Both the position numbers and the translations under genes were made by a program. Below, piece by piece: positions 4,481-63,267 of a stretch of 64,000 nt of DNA (positions within the stretch are counted from its first letter, which is position 1; each line of letters begins with the position of its first letter). The stretch is from a virus (lineage: Duplodnaviria; Caudoviricetes), in the IMG/VR virus record IMGVR_UViG_3300012041_000002, positions 12,210-76,209 of that record. One strand, 5' to 3'. Under the pieces are notes generated by a model. That model had not been told where the DNA came from and ran no database searches. It saw only the letters and a program-made list of their open reading frames with translations.

Positions 4481-4504
4481 CTCAAATATTTGATATAATT
4501 TGAG
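4481..4504 (+). promoter_or_regulatory. extended -10 promoter (TGnTATAAT 4491-4499) overlapped by a palindromic operator candidate
   Basis: CTCAAATATTTGATATAATTTGAG: internal palindrome TCAAATATTTGA plus outer CTCAAAT/ATTTGAG arms. Confidence 0.55.
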
Positions 4505-4524
4505 TGACACTCAAAGGAGGTAGG

Positions 4525-11918: not shown

Positions 11919-12101
11919 ATGAGCTACAAACTAACCATATCCGCGGCACTGGTGTTGGTGCTGGTAACTGTATTGGCCGGGTGCAATATCCAACCCCCAC
12001 TCACAGTATCTAGTAGGTTGGTACCTGCGCGTTATACGTATATGGTTCCGACACCGGGGCCGACAATTCCAGAGGCAATAGAAACAGGGGAGCCCAAATA
12101 A
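11919..12101 (+). CDS. small lipoprotein
   Basis: Hydrophobic stretch ending in lipobox LAGC; GGAGG RBS. Confidence 0.75.
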   Translation: MSYKLTISAALVLVLVTVLAGCNIQPPLTVSSRLVPARYTYMVPTPGPTIPEAIETGEPK

Positions 12102-12160
12102 TAGCAATTCCTGCAACTCATGTGGTATACTGTTTCCCAAATCTTACGGAGGGTAGATAC

Positions 12161-12337: not shown

Positions 12338-12610
12338 ATGCCTCAGTATAAAGTTCTGGACAAAAATGCTCTGCGCAGGTTCAGTAAAGAAGCCGAGAAG
12401 CGTGGGATAACGGGCGCCAGTGTGGAGAGGCTTGATAAGCTGCTAGAGAAACAGCCCGACGATACCCTGTACCCTATTGGCTTTTCGTACCTGCATAATG
12501 ACAAAGATGTGAGGTGTTCGGTAACACTCAACGAAGATAGCGAATCTGTGCTACTGGACATTCCTCTGCAAAACTTCAACCACCTGCCAAGTGTAGAGGT
12601 TGATGAATGA
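12338..12610 (+). CDS. hypothetical protein
   Basis: AGGAG RBS. Confidence 0.7.
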   Translation: MPQYKVLDKNALRRFSKEAEKRGITGASVERLDKLLEKQPDDTLYPIGFSYLHNDKDVRCSVTLNEDSESVLLDIPLQNFNHLPSVEVDE

Positions 12611-19585: not shown

Positions 19586-20041
19586 CTAGAAAGGCAAGTC
19601 GTCGTTTGGTGCCGATGCCTGGGTAGCCTCGCCACTCCCCATACTTTCCCGCAAAGCCTTGAAATCAACGCCACCACCAGTCTCAGGTGAGGAGGTGCCA
19701 CTATCCCCACGCCTGTTCGGCGAGGAGAGGAACACTATGTTCTGAACAACATACTCGTTCGTTGTTACCTGAATACCGTCCTTCTCGTATTGACGATTCT
19801 GCGCACGCCCTACAACCTCGACGTGTGAGCCTTTTTCCGTATAATCCCTCACCAGTTCGGCCTGCTTGCCAAAAGCAACGATGTTGAACCAATCGGTTTT
19901 GTTCTTACCATCGGCGTCCTTTGTAAAGCCCGTTACCCCTATTGAGAACGAGGCAGTCACCTTGTCACCGTTAGTGAAGATTTTCGGGTCACGTCCTAGA
20001 TACCCACTGAACACGCAATTATTCAATCCTGGGTTTGCCAC
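19586..20041 (-). CDS. ssb: single-stranded DNA-binding protein
   Basis: LNNCVFSGYLGRDP...TDWFNIVAFGKQAE..KGSHVEVVGR..; acidic tail NDDLPF. Confidence 0.95.
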   Translation of the reverse strand: MANPGLNNCVFSGYLGRDPKIFTNGDKVTASFSIGVTGFTKDADGKNKTDWFNIVAFGKQAELVRDYTEKGSHVEVVGRAQNRQYEKDGIQVTTNEYVVQNIVFLSSPNRRGDSGTSSPETGGGVDFKALRESMGSGEATQASAPNDDLPF

Positions 20042-20105
20042 TTCATTTACTCCTTTTCGTTCATACTAAGTATATACTATCAAGCATACTTTGACTATCA
20101 ATCAA

Positions 20106-20134
20106 AGTATAGCACACGTTTGCCCGGCTGTCAA
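20106..20134 (-). promoter_or_regulatory. consensus sigma70 promoter for ssb
   Basis: TTGACA-17-TATACT on the - strand with TGn; inverted repeat ATACTTTGA-N7-TCAAAGTAT (20086-20110) overlaps the -10. Confidence 0.8.
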
Positions 20135-29576: not shown

Positions 29577-29608
29577 AAAGAAAAGGGTAAGGCTGGTTAG
29601 CCTTACCC
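29577..29608 (-). terminator. intrinsic terminator of the blaI-like gene
   Basis: GGGTAAGGCT/AGCCTTACCC 10-bp stem followed by TTTTCTTT on the - strand. Confidence 0.75.
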
Positions 29609-29998
29609 CCTTTGGTTTACTGCGCTTTTCACAGCCTCGACACCAAACGTGTCGAACATGGCTTCCACAACCTTGTGTAGTTGGGAGTTCATGTATTCGT
29701 CGTAGTTTTGGGTAACCGTATACCGGTAGGCTACGTCGGTTCTGTCTTGCCTTAGAAGCCCCTTCTTCACCAGTCTCACAAGTGTGGTGGTGATAGTCGG
29801 ATAGGAGGGCTCTTCGTCCTCCACAGAGCGCGACAGCATTTCTTTGAACACCTGGGTAACCGTGGCGGAGTTCTTCTGCCACATGATGTCCATTATTTCT
29901 TCTTCGAGGGAACCCAGGGCATTGATTCCCTCTATATCCAATCGGTTTGATTGTCCTCGAAGTACCTTCATTTCTAGTTGCTCACTCGTCATTAGCAT
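29603..29998 (-). CDS. BlaI/MecI/CopY-family winged-helix repressor
   Basis: LGSLEEEIMDIMW...ATV..V...YPTITTTLVRLVKKGLL.Q......YRY. Confidence 0.9.
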   Translation of the reverse strand: MLMTSEQLEMKVLRGQSNRLDIEGINALGSLEEEIMDIMWQKNSATVTQVFKEMLSRSVEDEEPSYPTITTTLVRLVKKGLLRQDRTDVAYRYTVTQNYDEYMNSQLHKVVEAMFDTFGVEAVKSAVNQRG

Positions 29999-40792: not shown

Positions 40793-40805
40793 TCCTGAAT
40801 AGGAT

Positions 40806-40841
40806 GAGCCCCCTCCAGATAATGGAGGGGGCTCTTTTTTT
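40806..40841 (+). terminator. intrinsic terminator after the tail tube gene
   Basis: GAGCCCCCTCCA-GATAA-TGGAGGGGGCTC + T7. Confidence 0.9.
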
Positions 40842-41922: not shown

Positions 41923-41929
41923 AGTTGTT

Positions 41930-41963
41930 AGTCCCCTAACCAATACGGTTAGGGGGCTTTTTT
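41930..41963 (+). terminator. intrinsic terminator before the tape measure gene
   Basis: AGTCCCCTAACC-AATAC-GGTTAGGGGGCT + T run. Confidence 0.8.
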
Positions 41964-41997
41964 ATTTAGGGGTAGACACACCAAAAGAGAGTGAAAC

Positions 41998-59037: not shown

Positions 59038-59676
59038 ATGAAAAAGAAGTTAGGAGCGCTTATGGCGCTCCTTTTACTTATGTCCTGGCTCACAAACGAG
59101 CCCGAGTACCCCAACACCACCATTATGTGGAGCCCAGGCCCGGTTTTGAACCAGAACGGCCTCCCCCAGTGCGTACCCTACGCCATCCACACACTATTAC
59201 AGGCGGCTCCTCACCGTTTACATTACCTGCCCTCCCCGGGCAGCATCTACTACGGGGCACGCTCCATAGAGAGCCGTGCCCCTCATACCCCGGGAACTAC
59301 CGTGCAAGCCGCGTTCAAGTATATGCAAAACTTAGGTTTGGTAGACGACTGGCGGTACTCATGGAGTATCCAAACAGCCTCGAAATGGTTCGATTATGGC
59401 CCGGTGCTCGTGGTGGGCAGGTGGCGTGTGGGTATGTACCCGGAGGAGTTTGGGTACATTCGTACCGTTGGAACACCCTTTTCAAGTGCGCACGCTATTA
59501 CATGTTACGGCCTGTCAACTGATAAAGACTGGTTTTGCCAGAACACCTGGGGCCCTGTCTGGGGCTACGGTGGGCGCATGGTGTTCAGTTATGCGGATAT
59601 GGATAGATTTGGCGCGGATTTTTTCCAACCAAAAGTGTCGTCGCAATATACAGATTATTGGAGTAAATTCAGATGA
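59038..59676 (+). CDS. papain-like (C1) cysteine peptidase with N-terminal signal/anchor
   Basis: LNQNGLPQC (oxyanion Q, catalytic C), SAHAI (H), QNTWG..WG..G (N). Confidence 0.85.
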   Translation: MKKKLGALMALLLLMSWLTNEPEYPNTTIMWSPGPVLNQNGLPQCVPYAIHTLLQAAPHRLHYLPSPGSIYYGARSIESRAPHTPGTTVQAAFKYMQNLGLVDDWRYSWSIQTASKWFDYGPVLVVGRWRVGMYPEEFGYIRTVGTPFSSAHAITCYGLSTDKDWFCQNTWGPVWGYGGRMVFSYADMDRFGADFFQPKVSSQYTDYWSKFR

Positions 59677-61304: not shown

Positions 61305-62090
61305 ATGTTCGAAATAGATTCAACTACCTACACCACCAACAATTACTGGAGCCCGGAGAATTTGCGTGGGTTGCGCGAAACCAGCCACATCATGATACAC
61401 ACCACGATGGGGCGGGAGGCGAGCGATATACGCGAGCTGACTGAGGATAGAGGCCGCAACTCCAAGAGCATCAACTATTATGTTGCTCGACGCCAAAAGA
61501 TATTCCAGATAGTCGCCCCTGAACTTGCCTCCTTCCACTGCTACACAGCCCCCGGCGCCAAGAGAGATGGCCCATTCCGTCGCACTCTTGGGTGGGGTAA
61601 CGAGAATTTTAAGACTATCGGCATAGAGTTCGAGGCTCGTGAGAACGAGCCGCTCACCGAATGGCAGATTTCCGCTGGCAAGTGGCTGGTATCCTACCTG
61701 TGCGGGCGGTTCAACATACCGGTGGACAGGAACCGGATACTCGGGCACTACGAGATAAATGTCCAGAAATTTGACCCGCAACCGTCACAGGGCTGGAACT
61801 GGGACGACTTCATGGCCGGGGTTCGTGCGTATTCCGCACAGAGCGATGGCCGAAAGTATAAGTTCTTCCCCGAGACAGGCTACAGCATCTCCGGTGGCTT
61901 TTACGATTTGTGGCGATTTGACATCGACGGTTTCCCCAAAACCTTCGAAGAGGCAGAGGCGCAACCAGACGGCTCGGTGCTGACGGTGCAGTATTTCGAG
62001 AATACTCGCATGGAGTGGAAACCGGGGATGGAGGCTCGTAGGGGTGCGGTGGGGCGAATGTATCTCAAAGCCATAGGGCGAATCAACTAA
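61305..62090 (+). CDS. N-acetylmuramoyl-L-alanine amidase (Amidase_2) endolysin with Chloroflexi-type cell-wall repeat
   Basis: IMIHTT, SINYYV, SFHC, IGIEF, ILGHYEI..KFDP; C-terminal FFPETGYSISGGF..W...GFP.T.E..TVQYFE..RMEW.P. Confidence 0.9.
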   Translation: MFEIDSTTYTTNNYWSPENLRGLRETSHIMIHTTMGREASDIRELTEDRGRNSKSINYYVARRQKIFQIVAPELASFHCYTAPGAKRDGPFRRTLGWGNENFKTIGIEFEARENEPLTEWQISAGKWLVSYLCGRFNIPVDRNRILGHYEINVQKFDPQPSQGWNWDDFMAGVRAYSAQSDGRKYKFFPETGYSISGGFYDLWRFDIDGFPKTFEEAEAQPDGSVLTVQYFENTRMEWKPGMEARRGAVGRMYLKAIGRIN

Positions 62091-62098
62091 GGAGTAAA

Positions 62099-62530
62099 AT
62101 GAACGAACCAGTCATAACGGATGCGGTTAGTGCTGCTGTGCAGCTTCTGATACTAACCCTCATACCGATTTTCATAGCCGGGGCCAAGGTGCTCATCATG
62201 GACGTGTTCCCTTCCTGGGGCAAGAAGCTGAAAGCTAACCTGTCCGAGCAGCAATGGTACATGCTCGAGCAGCTGGCCGGTGTGGCTGTCAAGTACGCCG
62301 AGCAGCTCGCCAAGAATGAAGATGTGCGCAACGCCGGGCAGTATAAGTACGAGCAGGCCAAAGCCCTCATAGACGAAACCCTCGCCAAGAATAAGTTAAA
62401 GTTTACTACCCGAGAGATTGAGGCAGCGATTGAAGCAGCCGTGCGCGATACGTTCCCCAAGGAGGAAGCTAAAACTCAGCACCCTCTAGAGGAGTATAGT
62501 GAATCGGCAGCCGGAGAATTGCCTAAATAA
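62099..62530 (+). CDS. holin, LL-H family-like
   Basis: One N-terminal TM helix, then AV..AEQL...G..KY..A...L....IEA.IEAAV. Confidence 0.85.
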   Translation: MNEPVITDAVSAAVQLLILTLIPIFIAGAKVLIMDVFPSWGKKLKANLSEQQWYMLEQLAGVAVKYAEQLAKNEDVRNAGQYKYEQAKALIDETLAKNKLKFTTREIEAAIEAAVRDTFPKEEAKTQHPLEEYSESAAGELPK

Positions 62531-62546
62531 TAGCCCATTTGGGCTA

Positions 62547-62575
62547 TTGCAGTCCTGGAACATATGTGCTATACT
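62547..62575 (+). promoter_or_regulatory. sigma70 promoter for a candidate small RNA
   Basis: TTGCAG-17-TATACT with TGn. Confidence 0.65.
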
Positions 62576-62581
62576 TATTCT

Positions 62582-62666
62582 TGATAGGGTTATGTCAAGA
62601 ATGTGTTCACTCTCATTATTTTCTCTCCTTGCAGGCGCACCCTTTCGGGGGTGCGCCTCTTTTTTT
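62582..62666 (+). ncRNA. candidate ~85-nt antisense small RNA
   Basis: Own promoter, no + strand ORF, pyrimidine-rich anti-SD seed (TTTTCTCTCCTT), ends in the terminator below. Confidence 0.5.
62633..62666 (+). terminator. intrinsic terminator
   Basis: AGGCGCACCC-TTTCGG-GGGTGCGCCT + C-T7. Confidence 0.85.
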
Positions 62667-62710
62667 GTCCAACTTTACAGGCAGTAAATCTTACAGTCTT
62701 ATGTAAATTA

Positions 62711-62740
62711 TTGCCTTTAGATAATTATCTTTGGTATAAT
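62711..62740 (+). promoter_or_regulatory. sigma70 promoter with a palindrome in the spacer
   Basis: TTGCCT-18-TATAAT with TGn; AGATAATTATCT at 62719-62730. Confidence 0.65.
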
Positions 62741-62777
62741 TTAGCTAACGCCTTGAACAAGCGAAGCTATTAGAATA

Positions 62778-63047
62778 ATGGAGGGCGAAGAATTGGGTAG
62801 ACAGCGATTGGAACAACCACCCCGAGTAGCCGGCAGCACCATTTCACACGGTGTTATTGACTACCCACCATTGATTGAGGAGAGCCCCGTACTGCGCCAG
62901 GTTGAGCGCCTAGAATATCTTCGGATGCAGAGGGATTTGTATACTGAGGCGTTTGAAACCGAACAGGAAGTGTTGGAGAATATGCGTTCTGTTTCCGCTG
63001 TGTGCAAGCCAATGCCCGCATTCAAATACTTGGAGCTTATTGTATAG
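62778..63047 (+). CDS. hypothetical protein
   Basis: 89-aa ORF behind its own promoter; weak RBS. Confidence 0.5.
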   Translation: MEGEELGRQRLEQPPRVAGSTISHGVIDYPPLIEESPVLRQVERLEYLRMQRDLYTEAFETEQEVLENMRSVSAVCKPMPAFKYLELIV

Positions 63048-63216: not shown

Positions 63217-63245
63217 AGTGTACATAATAAAAAAGAACCCGTCAA
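63217..63245 (-). promoter_or_regulatory. sigma70 promoter embedded in the terminator hairpin
   Basis: TTGACG-17-TACACT on the - strand. Confidence 0.7.
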
Positions 63246-63267
63246 GATTCTTGACGGGTTCTTTTTT
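63229..63267. terminator. bidirectional intrinsic terminator
   Basis: AAAAAAGAACCCGTCAAG-ATT-CTTGACGGGTTCTTTTTT perfect 18-bp inverted repeat. Confidence 0.92.

Follow-up and report, generated by a model that had tools for sequence, protein, structure and literature searches.

A candidate small RNA with an exposed anti-Shine-Dalgarno tract directly downstream of the holin gene in an uncultured temperate phage

The window analysed is a stretch of 64,000 nucleotides and covers positions 12210-76209 of an IMG/VR phage record that is 76,209 bp long and has a terminal repeat of 123 bp. Its late genes form an uninterrupted block on the + strand, which runs from the terminase gene (30127) through an Amidase_2 endolysin to a Holin_LLH protein and constitutes a late operon of about 32 kb. 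The amidase gene occupies positions 61305-62090 (PF01510, E=1.8e-18) and the holin gene, the final one of the late/lysis operon, positions 62099-62530 (PF09682, E=2.6e-10). Strong intrinsic terminators are also placed within the operon, at about 40800-40840 (-22 kcal/mol) and 41925-41965 (-20 kcal/mol), as well as a third, bidirectional one at 59040-59075 (-13 to -16 kcal/mol); they imply partial termination or antitermination among the structural genes. The candidate small RNA (sRNA) unit starts 17 nt past the holin stop codon and corresponds to the holin 3' UTR, so that it belongs to the 3' end, not the upstream side, of the late/lysis operon. The unit is followed, in order, by a second promoter (P2, 62711-62740), an ORF of 84 or 89 codons, a bidirectional terminator and two convergent - strand genes. 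The bidirectional terminator (63228-63265), which separates the 84-aa gene from the convergent genes, has a perfect 12-bp stem with A6/T6 flanks and was missed by a consensus scan. A tyrosine integrase gene lies past the convergent genes, just outside the window, and the phage is therefore temperate.

The + strand promoter P1 (62547-62575) is read directly as TTGCAG (62547-62552), a 17-nt spacer and TATACT (62570-62575), and TGTGC at 62565-62569, just before the -10 element, provides a full TRTGn extended -10. From the placement of the -10 element and of the terminator T1, a non-coding RNA of about 85 nt is predicted at 62582-62666 on the + strand (83-85 nt for a start at 62582-62584). T1 (62633-62666) is an above-chance stem-loop (62633-62658; 11 pairs, 8 of them G-C, loop of 4 nt, -22.3 kcal/mol) followed by C and seven T. 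No terminator was found between the holin stop (62530) and T1. Since T1 comes directly after the + strand lysis genes, it is also the end of the late operon. Two further hairpins are placed upstream. H1 (UAAUAGCCC-AUUU-GGGCUAUUG, 62528-62549, -12.3 kcal/mol), without a U tract, spans the stop codon of the holin gene as well as the TTG in the P1 -35 element. The palindrome H2 (TATTCTTGATA-N6-TGTCAAGAATG, 62576-62603, -11.2 kcal/mol) covers the predicted start site and would be either operator-like DNA or a hairpin confined to the read-through late mRNA: a start at 62582-62584 strips away the greater part of its 5' arm. These two hairpins and T1 together account for the strong folding of the 138-nt region in comparison with shuffled sequences (z = -5.6). 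The predicted RNA holds no credible + strand ORF, and its sole ATG frame (62592-62687, 31 aa) runs out through T1. An attP site or a tRNA fragment was considered and rejected, the region being devoid of tRNA-like sequence.

The predicted RNA carries ahead of T1 the tract CAUUAUUUUCUCUCCUU (62614-62630, + strand), complementary to a Shine-Dalgarno (SD) sequence, 8 nt and an AUG, that is, to a translation initiation region (TIR). The surrounding segment 62606-62630 is free of G and mostly unpaired, with lower unpairing at 62627-62629. A first-pass annotation made from the letters alone had described a promoter TTGCAG-17-TATACT, a strong terminator about 85 nt past it, the lack of an ORF between them and a single-stranded, pyrimidine-rich middle. 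All four descriptions agree with the present analysis, which adds the extended -10.

The -35 element of P1 matches TTGACA at 3 of 6 positions, which is why a generic promoter scan missed the site. Its core, TGTGCTATACT, is part of the 10-mer GTGSTATACT, of which the 76-kb genome has four copies where 0.25 would be expected (Poisson probability about 1e-4). All four copies are intergenic: 12122-12131 and 62566-62575 on the + strand, 20115-20106 and 30075-30066 on the - strand. The three copies other than P1 lie 30-70 nt upstream of SD-led genes, namely a small-ORF operon (12161/12338), the SSB gene (19586-20041, PF00436) and the gene of a BlaI/Penicillinase_R-like regulator (29603-29998). A -35 element (TTGCAG, TTGCAA or TTGACA) is placed exactly 17 nt upstream in three of the four. 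With a score that rewards extended -10 elements, P1 ranks in the genome-wide top 12, against 4.45 expected from Markov simulations. P1 has 19 of 23 nt in common with the 12122 promoter and 19 of 22 nt with the SSB promoter (20115, - strand), scores that none of 300 shuffles matched in either case. By the promoter family, ranking and paralogy tests, P1 is thus above chance. At the 12122 and holin junctions the last codons and the stop of the upstream ORFs also agree (..GE(L)PK*, CCYAAATAATAGC), and P1 very probably either works as a promoter or descends recently from one that did.

Some side observations concern these promoter regions. The paralogous junctions of gene end and promoter, 12087-12131 and 62514-62575, agree in the last codons, the stop, a TAATAGC and the promoter spacer and -10 element, and the holin-side copy carries an insertion of about 15 nt that creates H1, absent from 12087-12131; the junction looks like a module-boundary sequence. 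Palindromes of the type TTTGA-N7-TCAAA, at 4499-4515 and 20090-20106, start on the final base of the -10 element of two extended -10 promoters and are operator-like sites. Four such palindromes occur, at spacings of N4-14, for 0.4 expected; H2 is a looser variant (CTTGA-N10-TCAAG). A common TTGATAG operator was rejected, as the motif is not enriched. The -35 element is immediately preceded by a CCCAWWTGGG palindrome both at P1 (62534-62543) and at the second promoter of the related contig described below (911-920).

The phage is an orphan temperate lineage without close relatives. Searches with blastn and tblastn against 50,697 phage records gave no match for the region, the holin, the amidase, or the holin and 90-aa ORF of the related contig. 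Among 5.8 billion proteins the holin, the amidase and the 89-aa ORF found only themselves (no relatives with common 5-mers), IMG/VR scans with five proteins or ORFs and two DNA patterns returned nothing related, and searches with neighbouring proteins, TerL and the integrase yielded only identical copies or nothing useful. Seven holin-bearing contigs are 100% identical across the region and hence show no variation. The integrase has one 29% match, in a Terriglobia MAG; TerL has only 27-31% matches, in 401 Acidobacteriota genomes, with at most 31% to anything found; and the SSB is closest to Firmicutes-phage SSBs (about 35%). The host was not identified from the integrase, TerL or SSB matches.

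An exhaustive HMMER search with the holin revealed one clear relative, P0007 (36% identity, E=1.6e-16), and all the comparative evidence comes from this single relative and its 2.2-kb contig, L030. There the holin stop (709-711) is followed by an orphan promoter, TTGACA-17-TATACT (755-783), with 11 of 12 consensus positions. A stretch of about 45 nt without ORF or RBS comes next and holds CAUGAUAGUUCCUCCU (806-821), whose CU motif is unpaired at 0.68-0.84; a CAU lies 5 nt upstream of the unpaired UUCCUCCU. After a 16-bp terminator (827-862), a second promoter, TTGACA-17-TATTAT (926-954), precedes the 14-nt box GCCTTGAACAAGCG (966-979), which is identical to positions 62750-62763 of the window and equally distant from the -10 element. 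Past the box are a GGAGGG SD, a 90-aa ORF, an A/T-flanked terminator and a convergent gene. The layout is that of the window: holin, orphan promoter, unpaired CU tract, terminator, second promoter, 14-mer box and an ORF of about 90 codons. The CUCCU core lies 2-12 nt ahead of the terminator stem in both phages, and H2 is not conserved. The intergenic DNA of the two phages is otherwise unalignable, so the functional layout is what persists; in this pair of sequences, the features surviving divergence are the promoter, the predicted unpaired CUCCU ahead of the terminator and the neighbouring unit. Around the other Holin_LLH relatives the neighbourhood differs, and a pattern of the 14-mer plus an SD gave nine matches in IMG/VR, all unrelated. 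Separately, the translation start regions of the two holin genes (AAGGAGTAA(A/G)ATGAACGAA; 62084-62105 in the window, 163-184 in L030) are identical at 18 of 19 nt, in contrast with the 36% identity of the proteins.

The neighbouring unit conserved alongside the candidate sRNA (62711-63047, + strand) comprises P2 (TTGCCT-18-TATAAT, 62711-62740), the box GCCTTGAACAAGCG in the 5' UTR (62750-62763) and an ORF of 84 or 89 codons that starts at TTG 62793 or ATG 62778 and ends at 63047. The 84-aa ORF (ORF84) and the 90-aa ORF of L030 show weak homology (Smith-Waterman score of 44 versus 26 +/- 5 in shuffles, p=0.0045). The ORF84 product is acidic and hydrophilic, and the ESM Atlas gave no match for it. 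The box lies 9-11 nt past the -10 element in both phages, is not complementary to the predicted sRNA and could act as an operator or as an RNA element.

A search for targets was conducted within the phage, as the first-pass annotation had suggested. Against 223-252 SD-bearing phage start sites, the duplex energies of the seed do not surpass those of shuffled seeds (p=0.48, 0.43 and 0.11), the shuffled seeds being of the same composition and the targets being candidate RBS windows. No phage RBS outperforms the shuffled seeds, including that before 12338, which had been singled out previously; an RBS-start context is indeed present there, and its true sequence, AGGAGAAAATAATG, has one A more than had been written. 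Pairing with the start regions of the holin and of ORF84 or its 90-aa counterpart, in both phages, is likewise no better than shuffled. The RBS of the holin, 12338 and ORF84 were consequently rejected as specific targets (ranks 108, 45 and 65 of 223). The single matches at 12338, at genome position 7467 (AAGGAGAAAATAGTGAACA) and at the holin RBS (AAGGAGTAAAATGA) are suggestive, and none is statistically outstanding. The earlier option of a trans-acting blocker of AGGAG-type RBS thus keeps its accessible tract and the layout found in L030 and loses a specific phage target. It is, as judged from these features, the best mechanism for the candidate sRNA, unproven as it is, and the target may be a host mRNA.

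We give about an even chance to the reading that the locus encodes a stand-alone phage sRNA of about 85 nt, which would have the late-operon terminator in common with the late mRNA and would expose an anti-SD/anti-AUG seed. The promoter family within the genome and the architecture repeated in L030 strengthen the core of the first-pass idea, a unit from promoter to terminator for a short non-coding RNA with an accessible anti-SD tract. A host-type promoter (sigma-70/sigma-A-like, extended -10) at 62547-62575 would start transcription at about 62582-62584, and the intrinsic terminator of the late operon would stop the RNA at about 62666. The product would be a non-coding RNA of about 85 nt, and the late mRNA would carry the same stretch as its 3' UTR. 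The single-stranded CAUUAUUUUCUCUCCUU of the small RNA would then most likely pair with a phage or host mRNA over the translation initiation region of that target and block ribosome binding. The motifs, their statistics and the architecture conserved in one relative are direct readings of the two sequences; from them we infer the existence of the transcript, its action in trans and its choice of target.

T1 is needed in any case to end the late operon, which leaves the promoter as the sole argument for an RNA of its own. In another reading, the locus would be no more than the late/lysis operon's terminator and structured 3' UTR, with an inactive promoter-like site and a functionless CU-rich tract. 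T1 is indeed the first terminator following the 32-kb + strand operon, H1 and H2 are meaningful only in a read-through RNA, the P1 -35 element has 3 of 6 positions of TTGACA and escaped the generic scan, and the paralogy of P1 to the 12087-12131 junction means that it could be a recombination scar, a duplicated junction. However, P1 retains every key promoter position and is part of a family that is significantly over-represented, and the L030 equivalent is an 11/12 consensus promoter despite surroundings beyond alignment; we regard the 3' UTR explanation as rather unlikely. It is still less probable that P1 is a second, upstream promoter of the 84-aa gene and the 85-nt RNA a terminated leader, an attenuator acting in cis. 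The two promoters have the same orientation and the tandem order P1-T1-P2-ORF is found in both phages, but no antiterminator was detected between P1 and T1 (the best competing fold has -9.3 kcal/mol versus -22.3 kcal/mol for T1), which makes an attenuator role for ORF84 unlikely. Besides, P2 lies downstream of T1 with its own conserved 5' UTR box, and no riboswitch or leader family matches the region. As for a small hydrophobic + strand protein of 31 aa (ATG 62592 to 62687), the open ATG frame here and a 34-aa frame in L030 speak for it, whereas the frame has no spaced SD, traverses the terminator to a stop 21 nt past the T tract and encodes a peptide unrelated to that of L030; such a protein is highly improbable.

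The remaining explanations concern the opposite strand and a generic mode of action. The reverse complement of 62590-62630 reads AAGGAGAGAAAATA-ATG AGA GTG AAC ACA TTC TTG ACA TAA, that is, AAGGAG, 8 nt, an ATG and an 8-codon ORF (MRVNTFLT*, 62616 down to 62590), precisely as the first-pass annotation had it. A functional - strand ribosome-loading site (SD plus AUG with a minimal or start-stop ORF), for which the + strand RNA would be a perfect cis-antisense partner, would fit the SD and ATG kept at 7-8 nt spacing on the - strand of both phages. It would also fit the seed 19-mer GCAAGGAGAGAAAATAATG, which has 19 unrelated matches in JGI metagenomes, 13 of them the genuine RBS and start of long ORFs. 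No - strand terminator was found between 63210 and 62616, and transcripts from 63245 could arrive. Against this, the L030 counterpart (AGGAGGAA-CTATC-ATG) opens an ORF of two codons (ATG GGC TAA, MG) versus eight here, and the peptide is therefore not conserved. The combination of AGGAG, a start and an ORF shorter than 40 codons occurs in 27 further cases in the genome, so that the mini-ORF is not above chance. The nearest - strand promoter-like site (63245-63217, 9/12) is modest, about 600 nt off and inside the terminator 63228-63265, and none was found on the - strand of L030. The earlier proposal of a - strand transcript heading into the lysis cassette does not fit the orientation: the lysis genes are on the + strand, upstream, and downstream of the mini-ORF the - strand holds only the antisense of the holin and amidase genes and no coupled gene, so that the transcript would be antisense to them. 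On the same grounds, together with the remote promoter and the peptide divergence, the reading of a cis-antisense RNA controlling a leader peptide finds no support. Judged by conservation in L030, the + strand unit stands, as do the SD and ATG, and the mini-ORF peptide does not. The 19-mer has the look of a textbook RBS, as is unavoidable for any anti-TIR seed, and the - strand SD and mini-ORF are, on this comparison, most likely the mirror image of the + strand seed; a functional - strand site has a low probability. Improbable as well, if marginally less so, is a generic anti-initiation-region RNA, in which a phage-made imitation of the 16S anti-SD is joined to a complement of the start codon, kept adjacent to the holin in an uncultured temperate lineage. 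Its role may be that of a timer or safety lock for the translation of lysis genes or of the host, or it may neutralise antisense read-through into the lysis genes via the conserved - strand start-stop site.

To our knowledge, almost no regulatory RNAs have been described for phages from uncultured lineages. Few phage-encoded regulatory RNAs are known beyond the lambda-like, P1/P22 and Vibrio phages (PMC12197685). The stand-alone sRNA preferred here unites a within-genome promoter family, a late-operon terminator and an architecture kept over about 64% protein divergence. If true, it would represent a new sRNA family directly 3' of the holin, and the control of lysis timing or lysogen fitness by a holin-adjacent sRNA is plausible. 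The candidate, computational and drawn from two genomes, is a solid lead and not a discovery.

Comparison with described systems places the candidate sRNA outside every known family. Rfam 15 at gathering thresholds gave 0 matches over the window, and the best sub-threshold scores (ncS025, 25.4 vs 46 bits; mmgR/suhB, 23.5 vs 41; sbrA, 21 vs 45; SR6 antitoxin, 18.3 vs 55) are all driven by the terminator. A type I toxin-antitoxin was rejected, given a mini-ORF of 8 codons, a 31-aa frame without SD that crosses T1 and an acidic, hydrophilic ORF84. The arrangement recalls CopA/CopT-tap of plasmid R1, with an antisense RNA over the RBS of a tiny ORF; however, translation of tap is coupled to that of repA, which shares its strand, whereas the tiny ORF here is uncoupled, is followed by no same-strand gene and is not conserved as a leader ORF. 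RBS-blocking phage RNAs are represented by P22 sar and P1/P7 c4 (PMC12197685), which the candidate resembles as a short phage RNA with a terminator and a proposed action on the RBS. Nevertheless, sar is a true antisense RNA of ant and c4 arises by processing from the operon of its target, whereas the candidate has neither an opposite-strand gene nor a defined target. Phage lambda encodes the sRNAs PreS, LPR2 and 6S (PMC12197685; bioRxiv 10.1101/2024.10.31.621285). The likeness is that lambda, too, has sRNAs in its late region; its RNAs depend on Hfq, however, and have no sequence relationship with the candidate. In contrast to the 6S of lambda pR'-tR', the candidate has no long downstream operon for antitermination read-through, only the 84-aa gene, the bidirectional terminator 63228-63265 and the convergent - strand genes.

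Two classes of bacterial sRNA come nearer in design. RsaE/RoxS are Gram-positive sRNAs with a C/U-rich anti-SD seed and repeated CCC loops. The candidate resembles them in its accessible, conserved pyrimidine motif complementary to the SD and in the presumed occlusion of the RBS, whereas it has a single CUCCU, a complementarity that reaches the start codon and no Rfam match, and no specific phage target emerged for it. The 3'-UTR sRNAs that have their own promoter and use the terminator of the upstream mRNA are classified as type I, for example DapZ and MicL, which are enterobacterial, Hfq-dependent and chromosomal. The candidate differs in being phage-borne, probably in a host with strong SD sequences, in its lack of sequence similarity to them and in being known here from sequence alone. 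On the other hand, it has in common with type I a putative promoter of its own at or just after the end of the upstream ORF (11/12 in L030 too), an intrinsic terminator common to sRNA and mRNA, and a predicted single-stranded seed immediately 5' of the terminator hairpin.
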